A stretch of 64,000 nt of DNA, taken from positions 13,753 through 77,752 of the forward strand of contig CAWJBB010000031.1 of assembly GCA_963840855.1 (NCBI GenBank), written 5' to 3'. Below, one piece after another: positions 34,274 to 63,043 of the stretch (its first letter is position 1; every line of letters starts with the position of its first letter). Made by a program: the position numbers and the translations under genes. The stretch is from an uncultured delta proteobacterium. Its GTDB lineage: Bacteria > Desulfobacterota > Binatia > UBA9968. The notes under the pieces were generated by a model. The model made no database searches. It had not been told where the DNA came from and worked only from the letters and a program-made list of their open reading frames with translations.

Positions 34274-34313
34274 GAACTAATCTAAAATAACGACTCGTTC
34301 ACGAACAGCAATC

Positions 34314-35920: not shown

Positions 35921-35928
35921 GTCCTTCT

Positions 35929-36937: not shown

Positions 36938-36953
36938 ATATGACGGGATTCCG

Positions 36954-38174: not shown

Positions 38175-38182
38175 GATGGAAC

Positions 38183-38896: not shown

Positions 38897-39003
38897 GTCT
38901 TTAGTTGTCACCATGACACCATTGTAATCGAAAATAAGTCAACAACGATCTTATCAATCTAGCTGAATAACTTTCGATCGGCCCGCGGCGCCCTCTTCGG
39001 CGG

Positions 39004-40925: not shown

Positions 40926-41007
40926 GATCTGACTCGAACGCGGTGGCTGACCGACCGGAGACAAATTCGCGTCATGCGCGGCTCCTTGAGCTTCATCGGA
41001 TAAATAT

Positions 41008-41088
41008 GTTCAAGCCGTTCAAAACGTTCAAGCCGTTCAAAACGTTGAACTGTTCCAAACGTTCCAGCGCTTTCAGGTGTTCCAAACG
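41008..41088. repeat. Tandem GTTCAA 9-mer array
   Basis: gttcaagcc gttcaaaac gttcaagcc gttcaaaac gttgaact gttccaaac gttccagc ... gttccaaac. Confidence 0.9.
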
Positions 41089-41620
41089 TGCGGGCATCGA
41101 GGTCAAATCTCGTATTTTGATATTGCGGATTTTCGTTGGTAACACCACGTTTTCGACGTGAGAGCGCGGTCCTGTGTTTCAGTTTGGACGAATTATTCGG
41201 GATTACCCACTGAGCCCGGCAGAGGGCCTGACGAATAACGAGGTCTGAGAAAAGGGGTCGGGATGAGTCTTTTCTTGATGAAGAAGCGCTTTATGCGATA
41301 GATGCACGAGCTAAAAGTCCATTTACAACATTTAGGGTCAAATCTTTTGTTGACAGTTGACCGATAAAGAACGCAAACGGAAAGAGGAGGGCGGCGCCCT
41401 CATAAAAGAAATCAATCGACGACGCGACGTATGGTTTGAGCTCGGATCGAACTGGTTGAAGCGCGAGGTCAATTCAAATTCTGGACAATCTTGCAGAACG
41501 CCCCAGTGATCCTCGTGACGTCCGGCGAATCAATAGCGGACTGGGCACGGAATGCGCACAATGAGCACACGCACCAGCCTGAGAACCCGGAATCCGAATG
41601 CACTAAGTAGTGAATTCTTT

Positions 41621-41706
41621 TGGTGCCGGAGGAGGGACTTGAACCCTCACGGGGTTGCCCCCACCGAATTTTGAGTCCGGCGCGTCTGCCGTTCCACCAC
41701 TCCGGC
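41621..41706 (-). tRNA. tRNA-Leu (anticodon CAA), 86 nt with encoded CCA
   Basis: GCCGGAG acceptor, anticodon arm CCGGA-CTCAAAA-TTCGG, long variable arm, GGTTCAAGTCC T-loop, CACCA end. Confidence 0.97.
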
Positions 41707-41722
41707 ACGATAGGATAATCAA

Positions 41723-42868
41723 TCACTTACGCCCGCCTGCGGCTTGCTCGGTTTGCTCACTGTGTGAGTTTTGTCGGTGTCCGTTTTCGAGCTCGGCGAC
41801 CTTGGCAGCTTTCGCTTCGTTCTCAAGATAGCGTTGATACGCTTCTTCTGCAAGCTCGGTGTCCACGGTGTCAACGATTCGATAAAGCTTGTAGATCTGC
41901 AAGGTCTTCCGGTTCATGTACTTGCTCGCGACGGTCTCCGGTACGCCTGCGCGGGACAAGTTCACGGCACAACTCCGACACAAAGCATGGTCCGTAACTC
42001 CGCCGAGTTTAGCCTCGCTCGTGGCCCGTTTCCACTCATCGCGAAAATCCTTTATTCGCCGACCGTTTCGATGAAAAATGAACGGGCAATCAAGTCGAAG
42101 CTTTTCCTTCCGGCGTAGAAGCACGGCGCGCATGGTGGGGAATTTCTTAAACGACAACAACGCCCCTTGCTTGTTCTTGGAGATCGCATGCCGGAGTTTG
42201 ACGGTCTCGCGCTGCCAATCAACGTCCTTTTTCTCCAGACGCATGATCGAGCCGACGCGCCACCCTGAGGCATACTGAAACTCGATGAGATCCCGGACAT
42301 CGGTGTCGTGAAACTTTGTCAACAGCCGGGTGAAGTCCGCGGCTTCCACGTAATCGTCGCGCTTGTTTTCGTTCGGGAGGAGTTCGATCACCGGCGCCGC
42401 GGCGAGCTTCCCGAGCTTGCAAGAGAGCCGAAGCATTCGCCGGAGGTAGCGCAGCTCGCCGTTGATCGTGGCGATCGCGGCCTTCTCCTCGATTCGTCGA
42501 TCGATGTGCTTGTTGATCTTGGCGAGATCGATGTCGGCGGGGCGTGTGAATTCGAAAGAGACGGCGAGCGGCTTGATCTTATGCTCTACGTCTTCCCAAG
42601 AGCGGTTACCCTTCCGCTTATAATCCGCCTTCATGAGCTCCACCATGTCGGTGTAATAAAATTTCTGCTGGCGGAGCGCGTAAGCGCCCTTCCCGATTTC
42701 CTCTAGCCGGCGTCGGAGCAGCGCCCTAGCCTTCGCCTCGCTGTCGGTCTTCGCCGACTCGACACGCTCGCGGCCGCGGAACCAATAGGCGATGGAGTAG
42801 TTTGGTGACTCTTTGATCGTGCCGTCGGGAAGCTTCCAGGCGCGCTTGAATACTCGGCCTACCGCCAT
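41723..42868 (-). CDS. Tyrosine recombinase/integrase with an atypical active site
   Basis: Arm-binding N-terminus, [35 protein letters not shown]; stop lies 16 nt before the tRNA 5' end. Confidence 0.9.
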
Positions 42869-43023
42869 AGCTGTGATCCCCTATTTAGATCGAGCTTTGC
42901 TGGATCGTCTTTCATCAGCTCTGCATTTTCAGCTTAACAAATATCGATTTTCCATATGGACCTCGTTTGCACAATAAAAAAGGCCGGGCTCCTCTCCCGC
43001 GCCATGCGAGAAGAAGTCGCGGC

Positions 43024-43054
43024 CCTCGTGTCGGCAGTTCGATTCTGTCCCTAG
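43024..43054 (+). other. 3' fragment of a tRNA-Phe-like gene (att-like relic)
   Basis: CCTC-GTGTC-GGCAG-TTCGATT-CTGTC-CCTAG: anticodon 3' strand, variable loop, intact T-arm, start of acceptor strand. Confidence 0.65.
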
Positions 43055-44497
43055 CAGCCTGTGGTGAAAGTCGCGCACGGAGTGGCGGTAGTTGGTGTTG
43101 CGAAATCGACAGGAACAAAGATTCGTAGTAAAGTTTTCCGTATGGCGATGGGACAACGAACACACGAAGAGCAAGCGGCGATTTGGGTGGCGGTCAGCGA
43201 GCTACCGCGGTCGGTGAGTCACCCGTTCTACGAGAAGCTAAATCGGCTGTTGGCCGAGCATGGATTCGACGACTTCGTCGAGGCGCAGTGCCGGCCATTC
43301 TATGCGGAGAAGATGGGGCGGCCCAGTCTGGCACCGGGACAATATTTCCGTCTCCTCTTGCTTGGCTACTTCGAAGGCCTGGACTCGGAACGCGGCATCG
43401 CCTGGCGTGCGGCGGACTCCTCAGGAGTGCGGGCGTTTCTCGGGCTCGCGCTGACAGAGGCGGCGCCGGATCATTCGACGATATCGCGGACGCGGCGATT
43501 GATCGACCTGGACACCCATCGGGCGGTGTTCAGATGGGTTCTTCAGTGTCTGGGCATCGCCGGCCTGGTCAAGGGGAAAACGATTGCGATAGACGCCACG
43601 ACGCTCGAAGCGAATGCGGCCCTGCGCAGCATCGTGCGCCGCGACACCGGGGAGAGCTATCACGAGTTTTTGACCAAGCTGGCTCAGGCCTCTGGCATTG
43701 AGACCCCCACGCGGGAGGATCTCGCTAAGCTGGATCGCAAGCGCAAGAAGAAAGGGTCGAACAAGGACTGGGAACATCCGCACGACCCCGACGCGCGCAT
43801 CACCAAGATGAAGGACGGGCGCACCCATTTAGCGCACAAAGCCGAGCATGCGGTGGACCTGGAGACCGGTGCGATCGTGGCCGTCACGCTACAGGAGGCC
43901 GATCAGGGCGATACCACAACGATCCAGACCACGCTGCCCGAAGCGGTCGAGCAGTTGGAAGCCGTAGCCGCCGTCACCGACGATGTGGTGAGGACGGGGG
44001 AGGAACTGGTCGCCGACAAGGGCTATCACAGCAAGCAAACCGTGCTCGATGTACAGTCCCTGGGACTGCGCAGCTACATCAGCGAACCGGATCGGGGTCG
44101 GCAGCACTGGATCGATCAGCACGCCGAGCGCGACGCAGTGTATGCCAATCGGCGGCGCATCGAGGGTGAGCGCGGGCAGCAGTTGATGCGGCGACGGGGT
44201 GAGTTGTTGGAGCGACCCAATGTTCTCCTCTATGATACCGGCGGGATGCGGCGGACTCATCTGCGTGGGCACGGCAACATTCTCAAACGGCTGCTCGTGC
44301 ACGTGGCGGCCTGCAATCTGGGCCTGTGGATGCGCACATTGACGGGCATTGGAACGCCACACGGCCTGCAGGGCCGCCTGGCCATCGTACTGGCTTTCTT
44401 TTTTACTCTGTGGGGAGTCCTGCGCAACCGAGTAACCGCGCATCGCCGCCGAGGACTCGATCTGAGACTAATTGCGATCCCAAGTTACCGCCTCGCA
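43055..44497 (+). mobile_element. IS1182/IS5-like insertion sequence, right end missing (transposase from ATG 43142)
   Basis: GRPS..P, PDHSTISRTR, IDATTLEANA, DPDAR, ADKGY motifs; left end cagcctgtggtgaaagt follows CTAG; no matching right IR seen. Confidence 0.85.
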
Positions 44498-44500
44498 CAG

Positions 44501-44900
44501 GCCGGTTTGGTTCTCGAAGAACTTTTGCTGCGTCGTCACATCCGTCGCGTACCGGTTCTTTGCCCGGCGTTGCTACAACGCCAGTGGAAAATCGAGCTTC
44601 GCCGTAAGTTCAATCTCGAATTCGAGATTATCGATTCCGAGTCCACGTTCCAGCTCCGTCGTCGTATGGGGATCGACACAAATCCGTGGAAAAGCATTCC
44701 CTCGGATCATAACGTCGATGGAGTACCTGAGAATGCCTGACGTACTGCAGCAGTTTCTTCGTGCATCGGGGGACAGCCCTGATTTGCGGTCTAATGGTCA
44801 TACCCTTGCTCATGCTCCGTGGGATGCGCTGATTGTGGACGAATATCATCATTTCGCTCCGCAGGCAGGGAATCGGGCGAGCCCACGCACAAGGATATAA
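44501..44900 (+). pseudogene. Internal fragment of an SNF2 helicase (DISARM DrmD-like), frameshifted near 44690
   Basis: AGLVLEELLLRRHIRRV..CPALLQRQW..ELRRKF...NPWK / AFPRIITSMEYLR...WDALIVDEYHH. Confidence 0.75.
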
Positions 44901-45227
44901 TGTTACCCAACAAATTTGGAAGCATAATACTGCAATGTAGGAACGCTGTGGGTAAAGGGACCCGCTGTCTTTTCAATGCGTCGCTTTTAATAGGTGTCGA
45001 CCATCCTTTGAATTTCATCCGCATTATTGGTTTTCGTAAGCGCAAAGGAGAACAGCAACCGTGCTTTCCACGGTTGCAGGTTGTCGCCGGCGACGAGACC
45101 GAGAAGACAAAAGGGAAGATAGGGGAATCGAAACGAAAGAAAAATAGGTTCACGAGATTGAAAATGCGACTGAACGAGATCCGCAACCGCTGAACGTTAC
45201 CATACGTGATATGTTGACGGGGTCAAG

Positions 45228-46169
45228 TTGAAAATTAGCGTAATTATTTGCACCTACAATCGCGCGGCCAGCTTGTATCGAGCTTTATTGAGTCTAAATT
45301 CCATGGACGTGCCCAAGGATTTCTCCTGGGAAATACTTGTGGTGGACAATAACTCAAATGATGACACGAAACGCATTACTGCGAGTTTTGTCCAGCGCGC
45401 TGATGTATATGTTGAAGTCCGATACGTGTTTGAAGGCAGACAGGGGCTCAATCATGCGCGCAATGCCGGGATCAAGGCTGCTGCGGGAGACTTTCTGTTT
45501 TACATCGACGACGACGTTGAGGTTACCAGCAACTGGCTCACGGAAATGAAAAACGCGTTCGACCGCTATCCGGTGATAGGGGTCGGTGGCAGGGTACTGC
45601 TCAAGAAGAACCTGAAAAAACCGCCGTGGTGGAGAATGGAGTATGACGACGCGCTAGGAAAGTTCGACCATGGCGATAGCGTCATTCTTTCTGATGCCAG
45701 CTATAGAGGCATCATCGGAATTGGCGCAAACCTTGGCTTCAAAAGGTCCGCTTTTGATAAGCATGGATTGTTTCGTTCGGACCTTGACAGACGGAAAAAT
45801 AAGCTATCAGTGGGGGGCGATACTGAATTTGTCCAACGGGTAAAAAACGGCGGCGATTTATCCATGTACTATCCTGGCGCCGTCGTATATCATTGCCCGA
45901 TGGGAAGCCGGTTCACGAAGTCCTATCTCCGGCGTTGGTATTTTCGTATAGGAGAGTGGCAGGCGCTGAAATTCCCCGGGAAAGCGAGCAAACCCCTCTT
46001 GCTTTTCACAATACCAAGAAGGAGATACCGGCAAATGCTAGCACAATCGTGGCACGCCATGGCTTCATTTTTGACAGGGCGTCTGGATGACGGGTTTTAT
46101 CACGAACTTCAGTTTATTTCAGTTCTTGGCTACTTTTTCGGAGCAGCAAAGAATTGGCTTGTCAAATGA
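45228..46169 (+). CDS. GT2 glycosyltransferase
   Basis: SVIICTYNR, VVDNNSND, ARNAG, YIDDD, GANLGF. Confidence 0.92.
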   Translation: MKISVIICTYNRAASLYRALLSLNSMDVPKDFSWEILVVDNNSNDDTKRITASFVQRADVYVEVRYVFEGRQGLNHARNAGIKAAAGDFLFYIDDDVEVTSNWLTEMKNAFDRYPVIGVGGRVLLKKNLKKPPWWRMEYDDALGKFDHGDSVILSDASYRGIIGIGANLGFKRSAFDKHGLFRSDLDRRKNKLSVGGDTEFVQRVKNGGDLSMYYPGAVVYHCPMGSRFTKSYLRRWYFRIGEWQALKFPGKASKPLLLFTIPRRRYRQMLAQSWHAMASFLTGRLDDGFYHELQFISVLGYFFGAAKNWLVK

Positions 46170-46191
46170 CCTCTGTGGTAAGACGAATCCT

Positions 46192-46956
46192 ATGCGTACC
46201 CTGACTTATCAATTTGACCTTATCTCTCATCTCGTTCAACGTGATTTTCGCTTACACTATACCGGGTCAATATTAGGAGTTCTCTGGTCAGTTGTGCTCC
46301 CCCTCGTCCAGCTGTTGGTGTTTGTCTTTCTTTTCAGCAGAGTCGTCCCATTAGACATCGATGACTATCCGGCTTTTGTTTTTAGCGCTTTGCTGCCTTG
46401 GACTTGGTTCAGTAATTGTGTCAGTTCAGCGGCTGGTGTCTTTACTGGCAATCGCGATATGCTCCGAAGACCTCGTTTTGCACCTGCGACATTAATCGTT
46501 GTCAACACGCTATCAAATCTTCTGACCTATTTGGTCAGTTTGCCCATTCTGTTCGGTGTGCTTGCATGGCATGGCCGCACTTTAAGCGTAGCCCTATTGT
46601 TGTTTCCACTTTTACTCCTCATCCAGAGCATTTTATTGATTGGGCTCGGACTGATTGTAGCAACGCTAAACGTTTTTTATCGAGACATTCAATATCTCAC
46701 CCGGGTGGCGCTCTCGCTCCTATTTTATTTGATCCCTGTTTTCTATCGCCCACAGCAACTCGGTACGAATTATTCTGAAATTCTGATGATGAATCCAATC
46801 GCGGTGTTGATCCAAAGTTATCGAGATATTTTCTTTTTTCAGCGTACGCCAGAATGGAACGCGCTCTTTTTTACTACTGTCGCTAGTCTCGTTACGGGTA
46901 GCCTCGGATACCTAATTTACTGCCGTCAGCAGCCACACATCATCGATGCCCTCTAG
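46192..46956 (+). CDS. wzm: Polysaccharide ABC-2 exporter permease (Wzm)
   Basis: RDFRLHYTGSILGVLWS, LLPWTWFS, FYRDI, NPIAVLIQSYR. Confidence 0.9.
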   Translation: MRTLTYQFDLISHLVQRDFRLHYTGSILGVLWSVVLPLVQLLVFVFLFSRVVPLDIDDYPAFVFSALLPWTWFSNCVSSAAGVFTGNRDMLRRPRFAPATLIVVNTLSNLLTYLVSLPILFGVLAWHGRTLSVALLLFPLLLLIQSILLIGLGLIVATLNVFYRDIQYLTRVALSLLFYLIPVFYRPQQLGTNYSEILMMNPIAVLIQSYRDIFFFQRTPEWNALFFTTVASLVTGSLGYLIYCRQQPHIIDAL

Positions 46957-46964
46957 TCTCGGCT

Positions 46965-48218
46965 ATGCCCACGATATTGATAGTAGAGTCCGTCTCCAAA
47001 CAATTTCATCTCCGGGGAGGGCGTCCAGTAACAATCCGTGGACTAATCACTCGTTGCCTCAGCGGCGGACCTTGGAGAAATCGGACGTTGTGGGCATTGC
47101 GCGACGTCAGTTTTACCGTGGAACAAGGGCAAGTGCTTGGAATCATTGGTCACAACGGCGCGGGCAAAAGTACACTGCTGCGCTTAATTTGCGGATTAGG
47201 GCGGCCCACTGCGGGGCGGATTCGTTGCACGGGTCTTGTCAGCGGCTTGCTCGAACTCGGCAGCGGATTTCACCCGGACCTTACCGGACGGGAGAATATT
47301 CTCACAGCTGGTTTACTGAATGGCAGGACAAGAAAACAGGTCCAGGCGGGAGAAAAGGAGATCATCGCCTTCGCCGAGCTGGAAGATTTTATCGATCAAC
47401 CAGTTCGCACGTATTCGAGCGGTATGTATCTGCGTCTCGCCTTCGCCGTTGCCATGCACTTTGACCCCGAGGTTCTAATTCTTGACGAGGTTTTAGCGGT
47501 CGGAGATGCGCGCTTTCAGCAGAAGTGCCTTGATCGATTGGTAACCTTCCGCAAAGCCCGCAAGACCCTGATCCTGACCTCGCACGATATGATGCAAATT
47601 AAGACATTATGTGATCAGGTTGTTGTCTTAGAAGAAGGTCGCATAGTCATGCAAGGTGACCCGGAAAGCGCCGAGCAGTGCTACTATGATTTGATGCGTC
47701 AACGAACTGAAAAGCGCGCGGCACAGATTTCGGGAACCGCTAACTCTCTTAGCCTTGCCGTCTCGCAGGGCAGCCGGCAGGGAACGCAGGAAGCGACGAT
47801 CTGTGACGTGCGTTTCTACGACAAGAGTGAGCAAGTGACCGACCGCATGCAATCTGGCGATAGCCTGACAATCGAACTGGAATACCGCTTGGAAAAACCG
47901 CTGGCCGATCTCGCGCTTAATCTGGGAATCTCCAACGAAGCTTATGTAAACTGCTTTGAAATCGCCGTTCTTTCGACTCGAGCGACGTTCGGTCCCCTGG
48001 CTAGCGCGGGCATCTTGCGCTGCCATTTTCCCGAAATACCGCTTCTTCCTGGCTGCTATTACGTAAACGTCGGGCTCTATCCCATCGACTGGGGTTATAA
48101 GTACGACCATCATTGGCATATGCATCCTTTGAAAATATTGCAGAACCCGGGAGAACCGTCTCAAGTAACTGGCGTGGTTTCACTCAATCCGCGTTGGTCT
48201 GCTCCAGAAACACTTTAA
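46965..48218 (+). CDS. wzt: Polysaccharide ABC exporter ATPase with C-terminal Wzt_C domain
   Basis: WALRDVSF, GHNGAGKST, YSSGM, LDEVLAVGD, plus ~170 aa C-terminal beta domain. Confidence 0.92.
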   Translation: MPTILIVESVSKQFHLRGGRPVTIRGLITRCLSGGPWRNRTLWALRDVSFTVEQGQVLGIIGHNGAGKSTLLRLICGLGRPTAGRIRCTGLVSGLLELGSGFHPDLTGRENILTAGLLNGRTRKQVQAGEKEIIAFAELEDFIDQPVRTYSSGMYLRLAFAVAMHFDPEVLILDEVLAVGDARFQQKCLDRLVTFRKARKTLILTSHDMMQIKTLCDQVVVLEEGRIVMQGDPESAEQCYYDLMRQRTEKRAAQISGTANSLSLAVSQGSRQGTQEATICDVRFYDKSEQVTDRMQSGDSLTIELEYRLEKPLADLALNLGISNEAYVNCFEIAVLSTRATFGPLASAGILRCHFPEIPLLPGCYYVNVGLYPIDWGYKYDHHWHMHPLKILQNPGEPSQVTGVVSLNPRWSAPETL

Positions 48219-48224
48219 AACGCC

Positions 48225-48579
48225 GTGGCCGGAAAGCGAGACTAAATGCAGGACTGTCCATTGTCTTTCCTCATGCTTAAAATTGTGGACGCCACGTGGC
48301 TATTTCGTGACTCCACGCTGTACACTGGCCCGCCAAATCAAACGGACCTTCTTCCTTGAAACACGTGGCGCATCACTTGGCGGTCGCGCACGTCATCGTC
48401 GTGGGCTCGAAAGTTCTGCGTGTTCTGCATCAGACGACGCAGGTTGCAGCGGGTGTCCAGCTCGGGCCGAAGAAGGTCTGCTAGCATGCTGTCGATTCCG
48501 ACGACGGGCCGGACGCGTTGACCAAAAAGCCCGACCCCGCAGACCCGATGAATTTGCTGGACACAAGGTCAGCCTTCAT
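48225..48579 (-). pseudogene. Decayed paralog of the NAD-dependent epimerase at 55717-56772
   Basis: Across frames: VVGIDSMLADL..PELDTRCNLRRLMQNTQNFRAHDDDVRDR / FKEEGPFDL...SHE, versus [55 protein letters not shown]. Confidence 0.75.
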
Positions 48580-49784
48580 CTTTCTTCTCTCCCGACCGGT
48601 TGTGTTTCTCTCAGATAGATGACCTGTGCCTCGAGCAACATTAAGACATAATCCACAAAGCGGGTCCCCACGAGGATAATGGCAATGGACCAGAAGAAAG
48701 ACATTGCGATAAACCGGGACCAATGTTCAAAGGTAGCGCCCGTGTGCACCAGTTCAAGAAAACTGGGCAGCACCAAGAGTCCTCCCACGGTTATAAGCCC
48801 GAGCGGAACCAGCCAAAAACCTGGGCTCCGGACAAACCGGGAAACAGCCTGAAACCTCCAGCCCATCTTCCTCTTCTCTGCGAGGGCGATTTGCACCACC
48901 CGGGCGCTCAAGTAACTGGCTGACAAAAACAGGAAGGCGATGATACCCGCAAGATGGCTTACTACAAAACGGTAGATCATCCATTCCTGAACGGCCTGGT
49001 GTCGGAGATAATATATAACCGGGGTTACCATCAAGAGGCATGCGCAACTGAAAGAAACTAGACTCAAGATAATGAGGGGCCGGGCAGGACGGTATAGAAA
49101 AGATGCTTCCAAAATGGCTTTCAGGAAACGCACCCCGTCCTTCCCCAGCCGGAGTTTGGATTCACCTTCCCGCTCATGGTAGGGCATGTCGATTTCCCGG
49201 ATCCGCAGGTTCCCCAGAACAGCCCGGGCGCTCATGGCCGGGGTGAAGTGCAATCCGTCCGGAAGGGGAAGAAGCGTCCAAAGGCTTCCCCGGCGGACCA
49301 CACGCATACCGCTCGCGGTATCGCTCACGCGGGAGGAGGATAAAAGGCTTAAGAGGGTTGAGAAGAGCCGGTTCCCAAATCGGCGGACCCACGGCATTCT
49401 GCTATCTTTATTTAGACGGGAACCAAGAACCATTTCGGCTTCTTCTCGGACTATCGTCGAGCAAAGTTGAGCAAAAAAACGAGGCTCGCAAGTTCCATCA
49501 GCGTCTAAAAACCCGAGAAGGTCGGCATCGGATTGGCGCCAAGCTTCTTTGATTGCGGCGCCATAACCTCGATTCTTCGGAAAAACAATGAGTTTGATCC
49601 TTTCGCCGAATTCACGCGCACGTTCAACCGTCCGGTCCGTTGATCCGTCGCTGACGACGGTAATATCCACTTCGGTCACCGGAGAATAGGTCGTGATTTC
49701 GTCCTTTGCTGCGATACAGCGTTTAATGATACCCTGGATGCTCTCCTCTTCATTTAGCGCGGGAATCGCGATAAGTAATTTCAT
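48576..49784 (-). CDS. DPM-synthase-like GT2 (polyprenol-phosphate glycosyltransferase) with C-terminal TMs
   Basis: IPALNEEE, SDGSTD, NRGYGAA, LDADG, DTASGMR, REGESKL. Confidence 0.9.
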   Translation of the reverse strand: MKLLIAIPALNEEESIQGIIKRCIAAKDEITTYSPVTEVDITVVSDGSTDRTVERAREFGERIKLIVFPKNRGYGAAIKEAWRQSDADLLGFLDADGTCEPRFFAQLCSTIVREEAEMVLGSRLNKDSRMPWVRRFGNRLFSTLLSLLSSSRVSDTASGMRVVRRGSLWTLLPLPDGLHFTPAMSARAVLGNLRIREIDMPYHEREGESKLRLGKDGVRFLKAILEASFLYRPARPLIILSLVSFSCACLLMVTPVIYYLRHQAVQEWMIYRFVVSHLAGIIAFLFLSASYLSARVVQIALAEKRKMGWRFQAVSRFVRSPGFWLVPLGLITVGGLLVLPSFLELVHTGATFEHWSRFIAMSFFWSIAIILVGTRFVDYVLMLLEAQVIYLRETQPVGREER

Positions 49785-49819
49785 AACTTACTCTTGAAAA
49801 CCCAGGCTCCGTAAGAAAT

Positions 49820-51568: not shown

Positions 51569-52086
51569 TTACCGGTCCAATGTTCAGGGGGAATGTCACG
51601 TCGCTCTTTTAGGCACGCAAGTTAGTTATTCTCCGGTCTTAGGCTAGTCATTTTCGACGGTACTAACGCAGCTGAGCAACAGGTTCCGCCCCTTAAATGC
51701 CGACCAATAACCTCAAAAGCCAATGCTATTTGGGGTTAGCCTTTGCCGTGACGCTCAATAGAATGAATTGGAACAATGAACTAGGAGACAGCATGGTGTG
51801 CCGTAGCCAGTGCGAAATGTTCGGCTCCAATCATGGTTATCAGCGTGCGCAAAAAATTGGGACTAAGTTATAGGCAACACTTCGTCACCTCATAAGGTAA
51901 GGGAAGTTTTCCAAATAAGGTAAACCACATAGGGGAACGACGCGAAAAGGAGATGTGAATGGTACTCAATCGATACCTCCTATTTCTGTGCTCCTTCTTG
52001 GCTGAAATAGCCTATTTCTATTCATTTCAAATTTTCTCAGCCTCAATCCGATTTTCTTTATCGAGGTTCAGCCGATTGACTAACTA

Positions 52087-55000
52087 TTACGAGTTTTTGC
52101 AAAGAAACTGCTCGCTGCCGGTAGGCAACTGGCTTATCCACGAACGGACTGTGGGTTTGGCTCGCTGGTCTACTGTCCTCCAAAAATGTTGACGAGCGAT
52201 TCTCCAGCTGGCGATTTCCAACTTCACCCGGTTGCAATCCTCGATGTCCACTTCCCCGCAAAGAAGATCGACGCAGCCACCTCTTATGATTCCTCCTAGA
52301 GTTTCCTCAACGGCGCCTGGAGCGATGATTTTCAGAAGCCGGCAACGCTCAATTCCGTGCTCCTGAAACAGCTGCTCCAAGGTAATGGTGTCGACTGCCG
52401 CCGTCCGCAGTACACGCTGAGAAACCGCCGTCCCGGGGTTAATTGTGGCCCATGCGCTCTCCCTGGCATCGACGTACAGCGTTCGCTTTCGGCCGTCTCC
52501 GGAGACCGCCTTGTTAATGGCGAAGACATTTGTCACCGTATTGGCCTCAATATTTCGCGTGAGGCAAGCGTAGTTCAGGGGATCCGGCTCGATAGCGTAG
52601 ACCTTTATAAAGGGAAACTTCTTCGCCAGATAGATAGAGACCACGCCCACATGCGCGCCGACATCAATGACGGTGTCTCCCTCTTTAAACACGGCAGCCT
52701 GTGTGAGGTAATAGTCGTTTTGCATGCGCTGGATCGCGTGTTCTATGCCTGAGTTGGCGCAACGATACAAAAACAGCAATTGGTTGTTGATCCGGCAGGT
52801 TTCGATCAACGGCTCTTCAATTTGTAAAGCGAAAGGCTGCTTGCTGGTCAGCTGTTTAAGGCTGCTATTGACTGTCCGAAATGTATTTTTCACTTTTTTT
52901 AATTGAGATGACTTATTGATCACGGACCGCATTAAAGAGATCGCTCGCCTACGTAAAACTCCCCGCCTGCGCCGAGGATTCAGTAGGTCGCTCCGCCCGT
53001 ACTTAATCGCCGCAAAAAGCATTGTAAACAGGAGCCAGCGATGTCTCGTTACGCCTTCGTAAATATGGAGCCAGTTTCTGCTCATGCACAACAATCTCGA
53101 CAACTCATTGGGAGTCGCCTGTCGCGTGAACTCGCGCAAGCCTGCCTCAGGTATCAGAGCGAACTGCTTGGCCACCAACGCGAGAAACTCGCGCTTGTGC
53201 GCGGCTTGGACGCGGTCCTTTAGTAGCCAATCGAATTGCCTTAGCTGCACCCTGACCAGCATGGACCAAATGTCCGCCGAGACATCCCAGGCGGACATAT
53301 TATCGTGGATTTTCTGAAAAACGGTAAAGACCTCGAAAATCTTTCGACTGGTCCGCGCCGAAATCTGATCTGGTCGGTTCATTCGGTAATACAAGAGCGC
53401 TTTATCAAGAAGAGATATTCTCGCTGCGTTCAGGAGCACAGAAAAGTGAAAGCAGATGTCTTCATAGGAATTCATCCCGTCCTCAAATTGAATCGCGTGC
53501 TTTTCGAGGAACGAGCGCTTGTATAACTTGGTCCATGCGACAGGTTCCAGCAACAAGACCCGGGGTTCACTGCGCAAATCGAACGGCATGGTTCTCAATC
53601 GAGGGTCCAATCTCCGCCGGATGGAATGGTCGAAGAGGCGACCAAAGTTTTTAGAATCTTCGTAAAAGACCGTGGCATCGGCGATTAACACATCCAAGTT
53701 GTCCTCGCTGGCTCGCCGGTACATCTCCTCACATAGTCTGATATCCGCCCAGTCATCTGCATCGGTGAAGGCAATATACTTTCCGCGCGCCGCGCGCATG
53801 CCGATATTACGAACCGTAGCGAGACCCCGGTTGGACTCGCAGTGGATCACACGGACATTTGAATACGTTGCACTGTAGCCATTGATGATTTTCGCGCTGT
53901 TATCCGTAGACGCATCGTTGATCACGATAATTTCGGTGTTTTTCAACGTCTGATTGACCAAGGAATCCAAGCATTGGATCAGATACTTCTCGACGTTGTA
54001 GGCGGCGACGATGACGGACACCAAGGGAGAACCTACACTGTTCAGGTTATTCTCCTCGGACGATACCAATGGGGAAAAATCCGGATTACCCTTTTGCACC
54101 CCGCGGAGCCCATCATCACTGTGGTGAGGGCGCCTCGCGAAGGAGATGGTCTTGTTGCGCGAGTTTTTTTCGTTGGTTGACGCATAGGAACAGGATGGCT
54201 CCCGTCCGGGCGCTTCGTCGGATGAAACTGCCGATTCCAATATCCCGATCATACGCGCCGTCATGGTATCCCAGCGATGCCATTGCTCCGCCAGGTCACG
54301 AATCCCAGACCGCAAGCGTTCAAGCAAATCGCTGTTCTCGCTAATAAGGTGCATCGCCTCTGCCAGCAGCTCGGGGTCGCGCGGCGAGCATAGGTAGATG
54401 TTACGACCATGCTCGAGCATCTCGTCCCGCCCAACACGGAGTTCGGTACCAATGACAGGCACGCCGTGGGTGCTCGCCGCGGCCAAAGAACTGCTATTCA
54501 GAGTTACCCCATAATCAAAAGGCAGGACGCAGGCATCGGCCGCGTATAGGTAGCGAGAGCCTTCATCGCTGTCCCAATTGAAATTTCCTGTCCAGATAAC
54601 TTTGTCGGCTATTCCAAGTATTCCCGGAAGGCGCTGGACCATTTGAAAGTAGTCCTTGCACTTACGGTTTGGTATCTCAAGGTTGCCACCCACAAGCGCT
54701 AGGCGTGCGTTCGAGTTTCGTTGCGATACGATACGAAAGGCCCGCAAAAGCGTCTCCACCCCTTTTCCTGGATAGATGTAACCCCAGTAGACCCAGACGA
54801 AGTCGTCAGGCCCGGCGCCCAGGACCTCACGAGCTCGATGCCGAGCGACGTCGGGTGAATCCGTGCAGAATCGGATGAGCGGCGGCGGTGGCAGGACTAC
54901 GCTCTTCTCCTCGATTCCCGCATCCCGGGTAAGAAGCCTTGCCCGATGCGGAGTGCTTAAAACGATCACCCGAGCGCTATCGCGGAGGAGCGTTCCGAAA

Positions 55001-55437
55001 AACCAGTGTACGCCTCGACCGAAGCGGAGTGCCATCATCTTGCGCCGCACTCGTGCGAGCGGCGAACGCGGGGGGGCTTCTGTGGCCACAATCTCAAATT
55101 GGGAGACGCATGGGACGCCGCGGAGAACGCGCTTGCTGTAGGTCGGCAGGTACGTAATCATCGGTTCGTGGTTAAATACCCACCCGATGTAAAGAAGAAG
55201 AACCACATCCGGTTGACACTCGCGCAGGCATGCAAGAAGTCGAGGGACATCTGCCCAGCTCCAGTCCTTCATGACGGGATGCACGACAATGTTCGGGTGC
55301 GTGGCGGCGATACTTCCCTTTTTGCACAGGACGTGCACAGCAAGTCCTGACTGGGCCAATTGTTCGCTCAGGTGGAGCGCATGATTTGCCTCGGGAGCAG
55401 GATCCGGCGGAAACGCGCAAACGAGCAACACTCTCAT
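52087..55437 (-). CDS. Fusion protein: GT4 + GT2 + FkbM-type methyltransferase
   Basis: GT4 (YIYPGKGVE), GT2 (SVIVAAYNVE, NDASTD, TDADD), FkbM (DVGAHVG, IEPDP). Confidence 0.88.
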   Translation of the reverse strand: MRVLLVCAFPPDPAPEANHALHLSEQLAQSGLAVHVLCKKGSIAATHPNIVVHPVMKDWSWADVPRLLACLRECQPDVVLLLYIGWVFNHEPMITYLPTYSKRVLRGVPCVSQFEIVATEAPPRSPLARVRRKMMALRFGRGVHWFFGTLLRDSARVIVLSTPHRARLLTRDAGIEEKSVVLPPPPLIRFCTDSPDVARHRAREVLGAGPDDFVWVYWGYIYPGKGVETLLRAFRIVSQRNSNARLALVGGNLEIPNRKCKDYFQMVQRLPGILGIADKVIWTGNFNWDSDEGSRYLYAADACVLPFDYGVTLNSSSLAAASTHGVPVIGTELRVGRDEMLEHGRNIYLCSPRDPELLAEAMHLISENSDLLERLRSGIRDLAEQWHRWDTMTARMIGILESAVSSDEAPGREPSCSYASTNEKNSRNKTISFARRPHHSDDGLRGVQKGNPDFSPLVSSEENNLNSVGSPLVSVIVAAYNVEKYLIQCLDSLVNQTLKNTEIIVINDASTDNSAKIINGYSATYSNVRVIHCESNRGLATVRNIGMRAARGKYIAFTDADDWADIRLCEEMYRRASEDNLDVLIADATVFYEDSKNFGRLFDHSIRRRLDPRLRTMPFDLRSEPRVLLLEPVAWTKLYKRSFLEKHAIQFEDGMNSYEDICFHFSVLLNAARISLLDKALLYYRMNRPDQISARTSRKIFEVFTVFQKIHDNMSAWDVSADIWSMLVRVQLRQFDWLLKDRVQAAHKREFLALVAKQFALIPEAGLREFTRQATPNELSRLLCMSRNWLHIYEGVTRHRWLLFTMLFAAIKYGRSDLLNPRRRRGVLRRRAISLMRSVINKSSQLKKVKNTFRTVNSSLKQLTSKQPFALQIEEPLIETCRINNQLLFLYRCANSGIEHAIQRMQNDYYLTQAAVFKEGDTVIDVGAHVGVVSIYLAKKFPFIKVYAIEPDPLNYACLTRNIEANTVTNVFAINKAVSGDGRKRTLYVDARESAWATINPGTAVSQRVLRTAAVDTITLEQLFQEHGIERCRLLKIIAPGAVEETLGGIIRGGCVDLLCGEVDIEDCNRVKLEIASWRIARQHFWRTVDQRAKPTVRSWISQLPTGSEQFLCKNS

Positions 55438-55700
55438 GATTTAAACGGTGGTGTAGCGAGGTGGCTCAGCAATCGCCGCGCATCTCGGCTGTCGAAGAGG
55501 ACGTCGTAGACGATATTGCGACGGCCGTCTCCACAGCCCAGCTTGCTCTGTCCATGAAGGAGGTCCACGGCATGCCGAAAGGCTTGCACCCGCGACAGCA
55601 GTCGATCTTCGCGGATTGGATCTCGTTGCTGCCGGTAATCATCACGGTAGCACTGACGACGCGAGAGGGTTGCGATCATCGATGTGACGGCACTTTTCAC
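55434..55700 (-). pseudogene. Truncated class I methyltransferase N-terminus
   Basis: RDPIREDRLLSRVQAFRH...LGCGDG, only 88 aa. Confidence 0.45.
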
Positions 55701-55716
55701 GACATTCTCCTTTCGG

Positions 55717-56772
55717 TCAGCACTTTAGTCGCTCTTGCCATGCACTGATGATCTCCATAAAGATGTCGGTAAGAGAGCGTGTGATATTCCATCCCCGGTG
55801 GTGACTTTGAAAACGCTCAAGGTTGCTGATGTAGCAGATGTGATCACCTTCACGCGGCTGTTCATGGTACTGGTACTTCATCTTCTTGCCCGTTAGTTGT
55901 TCTACGGTCTGGAACGCCTCGAAAATTGAGCAAGAATTGGCCCTACCGCCTCCAAGGTTGTAGACTTCGGCAATCCGAGGACTCCGGTAGACAGCTTCAA
56001 CCGCGGTTGCAACGTCATAGCTATGAATATTGTCCCGGACCTGTTTCCCCTTGTAACCGTAAATCTGATAGGTGCTCTGTTGGAGCTGGACTTTCACCAG
56101 ATAAGAGAGAAATCCATGCAGTTCGACCCCTGAATGATTCGGTCCGGTCAGACAGCCGCACCGCAGACAGCATGTCCTCATGCCGAAGTAGCGACCGTAC
56201 TCCTGAACCATAACATCGGCAGCCACCTTGCTCGCACCAAATATCGAGTGCTTGGAAGAGTCGATGCGCATTTGTTCAGTAATCCCCCAATGATCTTCCG
56301 GATTTGCATAGTCCCATCGCCAATCGAGTTCATTCAGAGGTAGCTCATTGGGGGCATCACCATAGACTTTATTAGTCGACATAAACACAAAAACTGCCTC
56401 CGGGCTTAACTGTCGCGTGATCTCGAGGACATTCATCGTCCCCATCGCGTTGACATCGAAGTCGTCTAGTGGACGCCTGGCTGCGAGGTCGTGACTAGGT
56501 TGCGCTGCACAGTGGACGATTAGATCAAAGGGTCCCTCATCCCGGAACAGGGATTGTAACCCATACCGGTCGCGTACATCGATGTCATGAGCCCGAAAGT
56601 TTCGCGTTGTCCGCAATAGCCGATTCAGGTTCCAGCGGGTATCGCCCTCGGGGCCGAAGAAGTCAGCTCGCATGTTATTGTCGATTCCGACGACGGACTG
56701 GGCGCGTTGGTCAAAGTAGCTGACCAATTCAGAACCGATCAATCCACTGGATCCGGTAATTAAGACCCTCAT
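55717..56772 (-). CDS. NAD-dependent sugar epimerase (CDP-paratose 2-epimerase-like)
   Basis: [35 protein letters not shown]. Confidence 0.9.
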
Positions 56773-57597
56773 GACAAATCGTTTACGCCTAATTATAAGG
56801 CGCTTCAAACCGTAATCCATGGACAACGAGTGAAGAATCTTCCTTTCCTCGGCATTTGCATCCTAAATCTTTGTCCGATGGTATTTGCAGCTAGCGAGCC
56901 CGGAGAGAACTTTGATATCGGCCTGATCCGCTGGCATTTTAGCAAAGGGCCGATACTAGCGTCAGTAAGCATTTTGGACATCATGGGACAGTCTAGGTTC
57001 GTCATAACGGCGCCGATGCGAATGAAAGAAAAGTTCTCGTGCCGTTCCGAGAGCGTGTAACTTTGGGTTCACGCTGCTATTTCTCCTACCTCCGTTCAAC
57101 CCGTTTTGATATCAAGTAACAGATTAGCCATGCTGAACAGGTTCGAAGCCTTGGAGCGACGTAACGCTCCCAAGAACGCGGCAAAGAGAGTTAGCACGGC
57201 AAGAATTACCTACCCTAAAGGCCAGCTGGCTAATTGGGACCCACCCAGCCCTTTCCCCAACTCTTATCCAGCGCGAACAGGGTCCCTCTACCGAAGCATA
57301 CCAGAATCGCACCGGGGCACGCGACACCTCCAAGCCCACTTGAGTGTTAGACTACGATGCCCATCGCGTATGTGGTGGGCTACAGTATAACGATCGCAGC
57401 CATATGAAAGGTTCCACAAACTTCCTGTCAAGGGACGGATACAAGCCCGTTCGCTCCATCAGATGTGCGGTTGTGCGTAACGCTGTTCAATCTCGAACCA
57501 TTCCTTAACGCGAACTGCAGACGCCGATTCGATACTTTGCCTATCAATACGATGACCTTCATCAAGTCGTTTGGCGTGGGATCCTGGAATAGCGAGG

Positions 57598-58593
57598 CTA
57601 TTTCCGTTGCTTTCGCGCGGTCTGTTGTTTTTTGGCCGTGCGGTAATAAGAAATTATCGCGCGTAAAAAATGATTCGGATTGCAAACCGTCGCTAATTGT
57701 CGATCGCGGATGAGATACATCAAAGTTTCTAAAAAGGGCCCGAGGCCTGTGCGCAACCCTGCAAATAGCATCTTCCAGACCTGCTGGCAGAGGGCCGCAC
57801 GTGTTTGCTCTTTCTCCATGGCCGAGAGCTTCAATACGTCGGCGTCATCGGTCATTTTCTGAAGTACCATGAGTTTATAATGGTTTAACTTCGAAATGTT
57901 CCGCGGGTGCGTCAAGTTATGATCATGTGCTCGTTTTTGCGCAACTACCCGGGGATAATAAGCAAACTGACCGATGACGGACAACCGAAGGAAAAGGTGT
58001 CGGTCTTCGGCACTTTTAATGGCTTCATCGAAGGCCCCAATTCTCTCCAATGCTTTTTTTGAGACCAAAGATGCGCTCAACTGCACATAAGTGCCCGGCA
58101 ATAAGCTGACGTACGCAGAGCCTTTCATGAGACGGAGTCCGTCTTTCTCTTCGTGGTACTCGACGCTCTCAATTCGACTTCCAACAAGGAGGCTCGTCTT
58201 GATTATTTGGTGGGCGTCAAAACGAAGGGCATCGCCAAAACAGACTAGAAGTTCAGGATGGCGCTTGAATCCAATTTCGAGCTGCTCCAGGTGATGCGGC
58301 AAAAAGCGATCGTCCGAATCCAAGAATGCGACGAGGTCTGCTTCTGCATGACGGAGGCCGGTGTTACGGGCTGCGGAAACACCGCGATTACCCTGTTGCC
58401 GCAGCTTTAGCCCAGGAAAGTTCTCGCGTCGCCAACTCAGAACTCGCGCGGCCGTGCCGTCGACTGAGCCATCGTCGACCACAATAATTTGTTCCGGGAG
58501 CCGGCTTTGACCGATCACGCTGTCGAGTGCTTCGCAGATGTACGACTCCGCATTGTATGCCGGAATAACCACCGCGATGGTATAATCTTTCAT
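57598..58593 (-). CDS. GT2 glycosyltransferase
   Basis: VIPAYN, VDDGS, SAARNTG, LDSDD, ED. Confidence 0.9.
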   Translation of the reverse strand: MKDYTIAVVIPAYNAESYICEALDSVIGQSRLPEQIIVVDDGSVDGTAARVLSWRRENFPGLKLRQQGNRGVSAARNTGLRHAEADLVAFLDSDDRFLPHHLEQLEIGFKRHPELLVCFGDALRFDAHQIIKTSLLVGSRIESVEYHEEKDGLRLMKGSAYVSLLPGTYVQLSASLVSKKALERIGAFDEAIKSAEDRHLFLRLSVIGQFAYYPRVVAQKRAHDHNLTHPRNISKLNHYKLMVLQKMTDDADVLKLSAMEKEQTRAALCQQVWKMLFAGLRTGLGPFLETLMYLIRDRQLATVCNPNHFLRAIISYYRTAKKQQTARKQRK

Positions 58594-59540
58594 CTACGAC
58601 CTATCATAGCGGCAACGAGACTTCGCCACGCCTTTGATCGCAATGGCTGATATAGAATTGACCGACCGGCAGACATTGCCGCGAGGCGCCATTCTCCACG
58701 CCCCCTATGGTAACCCGAGTTCTGCTCAAAAAGCGCACACAATTTTTTTCGAATGAGACCCCGGTAGGGCCTAAAATGTGGCTCGTCTTGAAGCAAACGC
58801 ATCGCGACTATGTACCAATTTGCGGGAGCTCCTTGGTTGCGAGAAACGCTCATTGCGTGATCCCGATAATACGTAACCACCTCTGGAACAAAATAAAAGT
58901 CCGCTTCATAAGCTAGGCGAATCCATAGGTGATGGTCTTCGTAGCTGCCCAAAGTCGCGTTGAATCCGCCCACACCTTCTAGCAACGCTTTCTTCGCCAA
59001 AATCGTGCTCGTCCAACCGAGGCTCGTACGCAGAAACTCAACCACTGGCTTCCTCAGCCTCAACACGGTGCCTGTTTCATAGGCATGACGAAGCTTATTA
59101 TGCGTTTTGGAACGAGATTTGAAAACCCCTTCCGAGCCGTGCGTGCCGTTTTCATATTGGCGCAGAAAATCCGCGCCGATCCATTGCGCCTCAGGAAAGC
59201 TTTCTAACACCCGGCAGCGAACTCGCAGCGCGTGAGGCAGCCAAATGTCATCGGCATCCAAGAAGGCAATCCACTCCCCGGTTGCTTCGGCAATACCGAA
59301 ATTGCGGGCGCTGGCCGCGCCGATGGGGCCCGGGTTGTGAACGACACGGACTCTCCGCTCAGCCGTTTCCCAATAACGAAGTCGCTGTAAGGTATTCGAG
59401 TCAGAACTATGATCATTTATTACAATAATCTCTATATTATCGGAGAAAGCTTCTTGTCGCAGCGCTGATTTGATGGCGTCGTCCAGGTATTGTCCGTAAT
59501 CGCGGCACGGAATCACGACGCTTAGAAAATAATTTCGCAT
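58590..59540 (-). CDS. GT2 glycosyltransferase
   Basis: VVIPC, INDHSSD, SARNFG, LDADD, ED. Confidence 0.9.
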   Translation of the reverse strand: MRNYFLSVVIPCRDYGQYLDDAIKSALRQEAFSDNIEIIVINDHSSDSNTLQRLRYWETAERRVRVVHNPGPIGAASARNFGIAEATGEWIAFLDADDIWLPHALRVRCRVLESFPEAQWIGADFLRQYENGTHGSEGVFKSRSKTHNKLRHAYETGTVLRLRKPVVEFLRTSLGWTSTILAKKALLEGVGGFNATLGSYEDHHLWIRLAYEADFYFVPEVVTYYRDHAMSVSRNQGAPANWYIVAMRLLQDEPHFRPYRGLIRKKLCALFEQNSGYHRGRGEWRLAAMSAGRSILYQPLRSKAWRSLVAAMIGRR

Positions 59541-60516
59541 CTCGCCTTATATTGTAATTCGCCGGCTTCGAACGGCCCTTACAGCTTGCTTCTCGCCAGT
59601 CCAGTCTCCGGTCAAGATACTGGTCCCTATGTCTAAAGTAAGCATATGGTTTGTATCGTTAGTATGAGCCATCACGTTGGTTTTTTACAGTGCCCAAAGC
59701 CCCTAACCAGTGACGATTCTGAGCGGGGATATTGCGCTCGCTGAAAAGAACGAAACGAAGCTTTTGTTTGCCCATCAACAAGCTTTCAAATTTATGAAAA
59801 CTGGGTTTTGTAGCAAAGTGAACCTAACAGGGGTTAATAGCAACGTGATTATGTCAGGGTGTGGGGATGACAACCCTGACGATGCGAGACGAGAAGCGGA
59901 TAGAGGTTATTCAAAGATGTTTCGGGGAATTCCGGTAGTTCATCGCGCAAGGAAGAAGACCCTGTTACACGCAAAGTAGACCAGTGTTGACTCGTCACTT
60001 TTTAGTAAACGGAACCCGAGAGGTTTCCTGGTCTCTACAGCAAACCCGTTCATCCGAACATTTCTACAGGCTCGATCCTGCACTGCGTCAACATCCATCC
60101 AAACTTTATACTGATCGCCGTTCCTGATTTTCACTGTTTCATTGCCTTTTTGTCGCTTAACCTGAAAGCCGAACGACTGCCGGAACTCTCAATATCCTAA
60201 AGCCAGGGGCAGCTTTGGGGGCAACACTCATTTCCGCACTCATATTTTCGAGATATATCCGCAGCTTAGAATTTTAATATAATTCCCCCCGCCCCACCAG
60301 TCCGCGCATTGGAAAGAGCTTCTTCTTGATCTCCCCTCTCCCCCCAAGGGCATTGAGGCCGAACTCTCCTGAGATGCGCGAACTTGAAGGCGCTCTGTAT
60401 GAGTATTGTCGGCACCTTGCATGCGAACGGTGCGGTTTAGCCGTTTCGATCCGCTAGAGCTGGTATGTGGTGCGGAGGGTTCTCTCAATCCGTTGTAGTC
60501 GGGACTTTGCCAGCTT

Positions 60517-60559
60517 ATTTTGAGTCCGGCGCGTCTGCCGTTCCACCACTCCGGCACGA
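60517..60559 (-). repeat. att repeat: 5' half of tRNA-Leu (nt 1-39 plus 4 nt of leader)
   Basis: Identical to 41668-41710; identity ends one base past the anticodon loop. Confidence 0.93.
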
Positions 60560-60562
60560 AGA

Positions 60563-60598
60563 GTTATTATTAATAACGAAGCAGCGATTGGGATACAA
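60563..60598 (-). promoter_or_regulatory. Probable native tRNA-Leu promoter region
   Basis: TTGTAT-17 bp-TATTAA(TAAT) on the minus strand; contains the palindrome gttatta-t-taataac. Confidence 0.45.
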
Positions 60599-60632
60599 GA
60601 GGATCAAATCGGCGCAAAGAACGACGACCCAA

Positions 60633-61994: not shown

Positions 61995-62116
61995 GAAACT
62001 CTCTTATATCACCCTCTCGGGTGAGACTGAAAATTTTTCGGGCTCGGTTTTAACCAGCCACTTAAACAATTGGCGGTCAGTCTCAGAAGTGTTGCACGTT
62101 GACGGTCGGGTTTCGA

Positions 62117-62752: not shown

Positions 62753-62819
62753 AGGGGTGAGTGAAAAATCCGTTCGGACTCTTATTTCCGGTATCTTTTT
62801 ATAGCGCGCCTACCCCGGT

Positions 62820-63043
62820 TCATTCCCAAGGCATGTCGAACCAGTGGATGAACTCTTCGTAGCTGTCCTCGGCCAGGCTATACTTGTCGCCACGGGCATT
62901 GGTGCGTTCAAATCGCACCTTGGCATCTTTGAACAATTGAACTACCGTGTCATGGATCAAGTCCTTAACCTCGCTCGGGTCGCTCACGGCTTCCATTTCA
63001 ATCCGATGCTCGCGGGCTTTGTTTTCCTTCAGGCGGGCCATCG
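62820..63043 (-). pseudogene. Short, probably chimeric remnant ORF
   Basis: MARLKENKAREHRIEME joined to ...EEFIHWFDMPWE; overlaps the truncated DprA-like copy. Confidence 0.35.

Follow-up and report, generated by a model that had tools for sequence, protein, structure and literature searches.

An integrase clade with reversed polarity at tRNA-Leu(CAA) and the displacement of the predicted native tRNA promoter

Nearly all islands that integrate into tRNA genes exchange the 3′ end of the gene, so that the host promoter stays in charge of the tRNA. What fixes the orientation of the attachment (att) sites on a symmetric anticodon stem, and where does the promoter come from when the 5′ end of the tRNA is replaced instead? 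A natural matched set for both questions is provided by an integrase family with a member in a 64,000-nucleotide (nt) stretch of contig CAWJBB010000031.1, hereafter the window, in which a tyrosine integrase gene (int) lies directly upstream of a tRNA-Leu gene with anticodon CAA. The window holds a real and well bounded island of 18.8 kb in a rare reversed polarity, and this polarity is a property of the whole clade of related integrases, which does the opposite of the usual at one tRNA. Our favoured overall account, which we consider probable, is that a reversed-polarity island rebuilt the tRNA, which is transcribed through the 3′ part of int.

The sole tRNA gene that ARAGORN found in the window is the intact tRNA-Leu(CAA) at 41621..41706 on the minus strand, and the assembly to which the window belongs (G000) contained no second full copy, only this int-linked one. 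A repeat search returned a 50-nt pair (41661-41710 and 60510-60559, 94% identity), and direct reading of both sites gave an exact direct repeat of 43 bp (41668-41710 = 60517-60559). As the preliminary description of the window had stated, this repeat consists of tRNA nt 1-39 plus four leader bases; its identity ends one base past the 7-nt anticodon loop. The integrase-side copy (41668..41710, unstranded) includes the presumed crossover in the anticodon loop (41669-41675), and the copy beside radA (60517..60559, unstranded) is a stranded tRNA 5′ fragment, with nt 1-39 at 60555..60517 plus the same four leader bases. The island proper lies between them (41711-60516; 18,806 bp, plus one copy of the repeat) and has a G+C content of 52.5%, below that of the genome (56.2%) and of the remaining contig (57.4%). 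Nucleotides 1-39 of the intact tRNA are thus island DNA and nt 40-86 are host DNA. ARAGORN and the gene calls confirmed the minus-strand order given in the preliminary description: radA, a promoter-like region, the tRNA 5′ fragment, cargo, integrase, and intact tRNA. An integrase beside an intact tRNA, a direct repeat of a tRNA fragment at the far end, and an unoccupied site in relatives identify a tRNA-targeting tyrosine-integrase island, and a displaced fragment made up of nt 1-39, retained with its native upstream region, identifies a 5′-replacing element.

A tRNA integrase is assigned to the anticodon-loop sublocation class when its identity block stops at the loop, which the symmetric anticodon stem flanks. 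The island belongs to this class, so defined, because the block ends at nt 39 and the loop comprises nt 32-38. Sublocation classes of tRNA integration sites are said to have been set out by Williams in 2002 (NAR 30:866). The integrase itself (41723..42868, minus strand, 381 amino acids) has an intact open reading frame (ORF), matches PF00589 (E 5.8e-13), and is 52% identical to the integrase of the related genome G013; a phmmer search against PDB chains gave no match. Its TGA stop lies 16 nt before tRNA +1 on the same strand. We also noted that tRNA nt 40, which directly adjoins the end of the att identity block, is T in the window (41667), giving a G-U pair in the anticodon stem, and C in 10 other int-linked copies.

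Could the repeat be something other than an integration scar, such as a chimera assembled from a mixed bin or the result of local duplication? The bin, G000, is 94% complete with 39 tRNAs and has 8.3% contamination, and it contains two versions of the region, which gives this alternative some footing. Contig C53 of the same bin has the same junction of radA, promoter, and fragment (L031 1445-12349 is 95% identical to window 52084-62988) and matches window 44499-48207 at 93%, with different DNA in place of ~48208-52083; this points to C31 and C53 being two strain-level island versions in one bin, with a cargo swap. Against a chimera, a single 77.7-kb contig covers both island junctions, each well inside it, and C53 is an independent instance of the radA-fragment junction. 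In G013, both types of junction are present, radA-fragment on one contig and int-tRNA on another. The int-tRNA junction recurs in 12 independent contigs of other assemblies (10 metagenome contigs, G013, and L070, a metagenome-assembled genome), and the integrase, the repeats on the two arms described below, and the drop in G+C all agree with integration. We therefore regard an artefact, which the preliminary description had named as one condition that would overturn its interpretation, as contradicted by these data and extremely unlikely.

The reversed geometry predicts that the DNA beside radA is the native upstream region of the tRNA. Orthologues of radA (60633..61994, minus strand, Pfam), the chromosomal gene upstream of the native tRNA-Leu locus, were found in 41 of 41 genomes, and we took radA loci with flanks of at most 1.5 kb from 29 other genomes. 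ARAGORN found an intact, co-oriented tRNA-Leu(CAA) downstream of radA in three of these 29 loci, at distances of 233 nt (L003/G004, same genus), ~140 nt (L017/G014), and ~1.2 kb (L008/G007). G002:C28 is a fourth case, and at L022 the tRNA is truncated by the edge of the locus. Aligning the upstream regions revealed one conserved promoter-like element, TTGTAT/TTGCAw, 17 nt, TATyAA, ending ~14 nt before +1, in seven of the nine aligned sites: the four native genes (G004, G007, G014, and G002:C28) and three stranded fragments (the window, C53, and G013). In the window, this predicted native tRNA-Leu promoter (TTGTAT-17-TATTAA; 60570..60598, minus strand) ends 14 nt before the +1 of the fragment and now faces the island. 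The leader of the intact tRNA is island-type and unrelated to the radA-side leader; because the same promoter element precedes the intact tRNA in relatives, we take the radA-side leader to be the native one. Thus, relatives have radA, the conserved promoter, and an intact tRNA, the promoter stands beside a 5′ fragment here, and the reversed geometry first proposed for this locus holds. The accompanying expectation, that radA precedes an intact tRNA-Leu in relatives lacking the island, was upheld by G004, G007, G014, and G002:C28; the other radA loci show no tRNA-Leu within flanks of at most 1.5 kb.

The other flank is supported within the genus by G002:C307, in which homologues of window 33111-35738 lie ~1 kb from a tRNA-Leu 3′ fragment, so in this genus the tRNA locus lies between these two chromosomal neighbourhoods. 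The empty site was pieced together flank by flank, as none of the four relatives has both flanks at close range. As a separate observation, ~5.9 kb of DNA with a higher G+C content (window 35739-41620) separates the tRNA from the flank that also occurs in G002:C307, where the equivalent points are only ~1 kb apart; this segment of the window encodes a MarR-like protein, a BamB-like repeat protein, an adenylate/guanylate cyclase, and a CMD-domain protein. In G004, an inverted copy of tRNA-Leu nt 29-86 (L003/L055, G004:C858:6690-6746) lies ~65 nt downstream of the intact gene near a contig end; it may be a genuine remnant of an inverted att site or an error of assembly.

To determine how far the reversed arrangement extends, as the preliminary description had suggested by a survey of integrase homologues, we compared integrase loci in three sets. 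In 41 related genomes, 20 loci outside the window matched the integrase at E ≤ 1e-30. Fourteen are classical, with the tRNA convergent on int (L035-L040, L042, L043, L045-L048, L050, and L053), four have no nearby tRNA, and two are co-directional: L034 in G013 (52% identity, tRNA-Leu(CAA), 16-nt gap) and L041 in G033 (32%, tRNA-Thr, 13-nt gap). A close homologue (E ≤ 1e-75) occurs in only two of the 90 genomes of the family, G000 and G013. A scan of species-representative genomes added L070, from a metagenome-assembled genome titled Pyrinomonadaceae (87% identity, int then tRNA-Leu(CAA)), L076, from a Terriglobia metagenome-assembled genome (30%, tRNA-Ala, 13-nt gap), and five classical loci. 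Among 16 loci from a metagenome scan (47-93% identity), six end inside int, and all 10 that extend past its stop have tRNA-Leu(CAA) +1 16-21 nt downstream on the same strand. In total, 13 loci of the clade are informative (the window, G013, L070, and the 10 metagenome contigs), and all of them have int followed by a co-directional tRNA-Leu(CAA). In reversed loci, 13-21 nt separate the int stop from +1 (the window, G013, and L089 each have 16 nt), while this distance ranges from 6 to 302 nt in 18 classical, convergent loci.

We placed 23 full-length or nearly full-length integrases in a maximum-likelihood tree, excluding broken, partial, or duplicate rows (L037, L049, L050, L052, L070, L071, L074, L077-L082, and L090-L103); dropping the classical row L035 (G009, a genome flagged as unpublished) left the result unchanged. 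The reversed Leu clade received 100/100 support and is nested among classical cousins, its neighbours being classical integrases of tRNA-Ser and of tRNA-Ala/Val/Glu. The G019 integrase, which is classical and also uses tRNA-Leu(CAA), sits elsewhere in the tree, and the reversed Thr and Ala cases branch separately. Judged from this tree, polarity changed at least three times within the integrase family, as the supported (starred) branches force, with G033 (tRNA-Thr) and L076 (tRNA-Ala) called reversed from int-tRNA orientation and gap alone. No 5′ fragment was found for the reversed tRNA-Thr locus of G033.

Classical islands at the same tRNA indicate where the exchange takes place. Their 3′ fragments comprise nt 31-86 (G019:C269, an island of ~8.2 kb with a convergent int) or nt 30-86 (G002:C28 and C307), while the 5′ fragments of reversed islands comprise nt 1-39 (the window and C53) or nt 1-41 (G013 and G018). 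Because nt 31-39, which form the anticodon loop together with its closing pair, are all that the two kinds of identity block have in common, the data fit strand exchange in the anticodon loop for both polarities, at putative cleavage positions. An 18-nt repeat with 16/18 identical positions occurs on both arms of the window island: at 41760..41777 (minus strand), inside the 3′ coding end of int and 71 nt before +1, and at 60395..60412 (minus strand), 105 nt beyond nt 39. The rough chance expectation is ~0.002 for two 300-nt arms, and the G013 element has a different repeat at comparable positions on both arms. From their sequence and placement, these repeats are candidate arm-type integrase-binding sites. 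In G018, we observed a tRNA-Leu 5′ half ~930 nt downstream of radA (L005/L058, G018:C3:53056-53094), with an int-type leader and degenerate stop region on one side and an island-type far arm on the other. This site resembles the attP junction that tandem or decayed islands would be expected to have between them; neither a clade integrase nor a full tRNA-Leu(CAA) was found in the G018 assembly.

From where, then, is the rebuilt tRNA transcribed? Because the native promoter is stranded beside radA, 18.8 kb away, the intact tRNA must be transcribed from island DNA, a consequence that the preliminary description had drawn and that follows from the geometry. It had offered two routes, read-through from the integrase gene and a promoter at TATCCT, of which we favour the former and find the latter wanting. 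The spacer between the int stop and +1 (41707..41722, minus strand) is 16 nt long, contains TATCCT, and cannot hold a promoter. Leaderless transcription from this hexamer 5 nt upstream, starting at or next to +1 and independent of int and of RNase P, would suit the same geometry: TATCCT (-11..-6) matches TATAAT at four of six positions including A2 and T6, +1 is G, and the spacer length of 16 nt in the window also holds in G013 and L089. However, there is no -35 element and no properly spaced TG, a strict promoter scan was empty here, and the hexamer varies, the matching columns in other members reading TTTCCT, TTCATT, TTTACT, TTGTCT, and TTATCT, so that A at position 2 occurs only in the window. 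The start of the spacer, yTGrTTT in most clade members, is conserved but could equally serve attP function. We consider leaderless transcription quite improbable.

Transcription through the 3′ end of int is instead what we infer. The short gap between the int stop and +1 in reversed loci, compared with its wide range in classical ones, speaks for this route, as does a remnant in G002:C367 (L085 9613-9864), where the last ~250 nt of a G013-type int, ~78 frameshifted codons, and an island-type leader still precede an intact tRNA-Leu(CAA), with a divergent gene beyond the remnant. Also in favour, neither G000 nor G013 yielded a full tRNA-Leu(CAA) other than the one linked to int, and UUG accounts for 19.5% of Leu codons. 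There, the tRNA lies 9.8 kb from radA, with DAG-kinase-like, deaminase, UDG, and SurE genes between them and no 5′ fragment by radA. We had considered this locus as a decayed island with cargo and rejected that reading, the interval encoding housekeeping-type proteins; because such genes fill it, the locus is rearranged, with only the int remnant surviving.

An alternative of a different kind is that, in the same geometry, the rebuilt tRNA is poorly transcribed or silent, and that the insertion is tolerated and not compensated, UUG being read by tRNA-Leu(UAA). Under wobble rules, this tRNA can also read UUG. No promoter is detectable at the rebuilt gene, and tRNA-Leu(UAA) genes were present in all five relatives tested, including one of the same genus. 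On the other hand, no full tRNA-Leu(UAA) was found in G000 at its 94% completeness and 39 tRNAs. UUG, at 20 per 1000 codons, is four times commoner than UUA (4.8). The arrangement persists over a deep clade and after int decay: the 11 int-linked tRNAs compared all keep the cloverleaf, with 25 of 25 pairs and none broken, and show compensatory changes at two pairs. We therefore hold a silent tRNA to be unlikely.

The geometric part of the favoured account is shown by the data: the island tyrosine integrase has recombined with the anticodon loop of the host tRNA-Leu(CAA) in reversed polarity, its attachment site lying directly past the int stop codon and carrying tRNA nt -4 to 39 where the 3′ part would be usual. 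Integration joined an island 5′ half to a host 3′ half, restoring an intact tRNA, and left the host promoter and the original 5′ half 18.8 kb off, beside radA. Transcription would then enter the tRNA from the 3′ portion of int, either because the two are co-transcribed or because the coding end of int contains a promoter, and RNase P would trim the 5′ end.

Several observations weigh against this account. Linkage of radA and tRNA-Leu is not universal, since the remaining radA loci have no tRNA-Leu inside flanks of at most 1.5 kb. Contigs from four soil or wetland runs aligned to 41300-60900 contained no attB or attP joint; cover was sparse, a search of sequencing runs listed no RNA data set, and the best-matching DNA run contained 0.25 of the sequence words, as contigs only, so this negative is uninformative about excision and expression. 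Strict sigma-70 scans of 41300-43300, the G002 remnant, and the G013 locus gave nothing usable on the tRNA strand, and a relaxed scan over an alignment of nine clade sequences gave no position common to all. A weak sigma-70-like match inside int (TTGCAG-17-TATCTT; 41825..41853, minus strand, ending 118 nt before +1) is a candidate tRNA promoter only; it occurs in five of the nine sequences, the closest ones, and is absent from the G013 type, so it may reflect protein conservation only. The argument from G002:C367 presumes that its tRNA is expressed, and the bin has a second copy on another contig. Finally, intactness of the tRNA beside a broken int is weak evidence of expression because 86 nt decay slowly and all variation among the 11 int-linked tRNAs lies in the host-derived half.

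The preliminary description went further and proposed that integration couples host translation to the state of the island. Among the 13 clade loci, int is intact in four (the window, G013, L088, and L089) and frameshifted or internally deleted in nine (L070, L093, and L096-L102), each of these nine beside an intact tRNA; metagenome assembly errors may account for some breaks, and some are common to contigs from different samples. In relatives, an ORF of 86-91 amino acids ends just before int. It looks like an excisionase (xis) gene by sequence, with an HTH_17 match in L096 (27.6 bits, above the cut-off), a match below the cut-off in L089 (22 bits), and none in L091. In the window, homology to L088 stops at 42935, so that the int upstream region (42869..42935, minus strand) retains only the last few codons of this ORF, which was not found elsewhere in the window; an insertion sequence (IS) transposase (DUF772 and DDE_Tnp_1 by Pfam; 43061..44740, plus strand) occupies the place of xis. 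This island copy is therefore probably locked in, although its int is intact. Given the lost xis-like gene, the broken int beside an intact tRNA in nine of 13 loci, and tRNA-Leu(UAA) in all five relatives, the proposed coupling is weakened and remains speculative, and because the arrangement often outlives the integrase, the data speak against UUG reading being dynamically coupled to the state of the island. As a further observation, the reading frame is broken at residue 166 in three integrase copies of separate assemblies (L070, L093, and L099), which could be one inherited lesion or a slippery site.

A more far-reaching possibility is a two-way promoter swap, in which int and the only cognate UUG tRNA of the host form one transcription unit and the native promoter drives a glycan operon. 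The 13-21-nt gap in three separately branching reversed lineages favours the first half. For the second half, the minus-strand cargo block at 48576-59540, which counts four GT2-type enzymes in full, including a fusion protein, is co-oriented with the displaced promoter, and a consensus scan, which is weak evidence here, found no terminator-like site between them. If the swap were true, host tRNA supply would depend on element DNA even after integrase decay, and the displaced, presumably strong, native promoter would drive a co-oriented 11-kb glycan operon only when the island is integrated. We regard this combined proposal as doubtful. A displaced promoter driving cargo as a general rule was considered and rejected, as the G018 island genes beside the fragment mostly face the opposite way.

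An element of reversed orientation, reportedly one of Mesorhizobium loti, has been described before. It is cited (Zhao and Williams 2002, J Bacteriol 184:859), together with several archaeal cases, in section 7 of PMC6563490, which calls recombination with the 5′-distal part of a tRNA "considerably less frequent" than with the 3′-distal part; the rarity of 5′-replacing elements, which the preliminary description had taken as given, accords with that section. As cited there, the earlier element is like ours in recombining with the 5′-distal part, in an attP that holds the tRNA front, and in separation of the native promoter, and unlike ours in that we find a whole integrase clade at tRNA-Leu(CAA), with hosts given as soil Acidobacteriota, an int stop 16 nt from +1, and classical cousins at the same tRNA. 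The archaeal 5′-side cases, so far as the section covers them, share the rare polarity but concern archaeal hosts and unrelated elements. In the literature collection searched, no further bacterial 5′-side cases appeared beyond PMC6563490.

Classical anticodon-loop islands (e.g., G019:C269 and G002:C28) likewise have a tyrosine integrase beside an intact tRNA, a repeat ending at the loop, a rebuilt gene, and variable cargo. Their duplication covers nt 30/31-86 and leaves the native promoter in place, whereas that of this island covers nt 1-39 and displaces it; int and tRNA are convergent in the former (gap 6-302 nt) and co-directional here (13-21 nt). In uropathogenic E. coli 536, the tRNA-Leu(CAA) gene leuX is the site of an island integrated on the 3′ side, which acts through loss of the tRNA on island deletion. 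The likeness is an island at the UUG-reading tRNA that ties island state to the supply of that tRNA. In tRNA-dependent lysogeny of mycobacteriophages, as outlined in PMC10865867, integration does not restore the tRNA at the junction, and a separate tRNA gene of the same isotype comes with the phage. After integration the host relies on element DNA for tRNA function in that system, as it does here, but in our island the tRNA is rebuilt exactly, only the upstream DNA has changed, and there is no other tRNA, which sets it apart from tRNA-dependent lysogeny. Reversed polarity is thus rare but already described; the present locus adds a coherent clade of reversed elements, whose classical cousins share its site, and a natural decay series. 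Any island finder restricted to 3′ fragments would miss such islands, and a stranded tRNA 5′ half may be mis-called in annotation.

The remaining island genes follow the IS transposase. On the plus strand, Pfam identified a GT2 glycosyltransferase (45228-46169), a Wzm-like ABC-2 permease (46087-46956), and a Wzt-like ATPase with a Wzt_C domain (46965-48218). On the minus strand are a GT2 (48576-49784), a 582-amino-acid protein with no Pfam family (49820-51568), a 1116-amino-acid GT4-GT2-methyltransferase fusion (52087-55437), an ORF of 88 amino acids, an NAD epimerase/dehydratase (55717-56826), and two further GT2 enzymes (57598-58593 and 58590-59540), the families again from Pfam. Because of this glycosyltransferase, Wzm, and Wzt content, the cargo is a surface-glycan cluster of the ABC-transporter (Wzm/Wzt) type.

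Two further tRNA-Leu fragments lie elsewhere in the bin. At C51:54236-54340, in the middle of a 104-kb contig and unlinked to a full tRNA, lies a degenerate tRNA-Leu(CAA) 3′ fragment (~nt 29-81) with one anticodon-loop base missing and the 3′ end deleted, and then ~60 nt similar to window 41563-41620; ~16 kb away (C51:37553-38302) there is a partial integrase homologue. This fragment may be the scar of an old classical island. At C1:81301-81340, where no full tRNA was called, 40 nt match the 3′ end of tRNA-Leu(UAA). In the metagenome locus L091, whose integrase is 86% identical to that of the window, a 649-amino-acid large serine recombinase (Resolvase/Recombinase/Zn_ribbon_recom; 62-2011) lies upstream of the xis-like gene and int, and between them stands a conserved ORF of 121 amino acids with no Pfam family, which is also present in L088 and L100.

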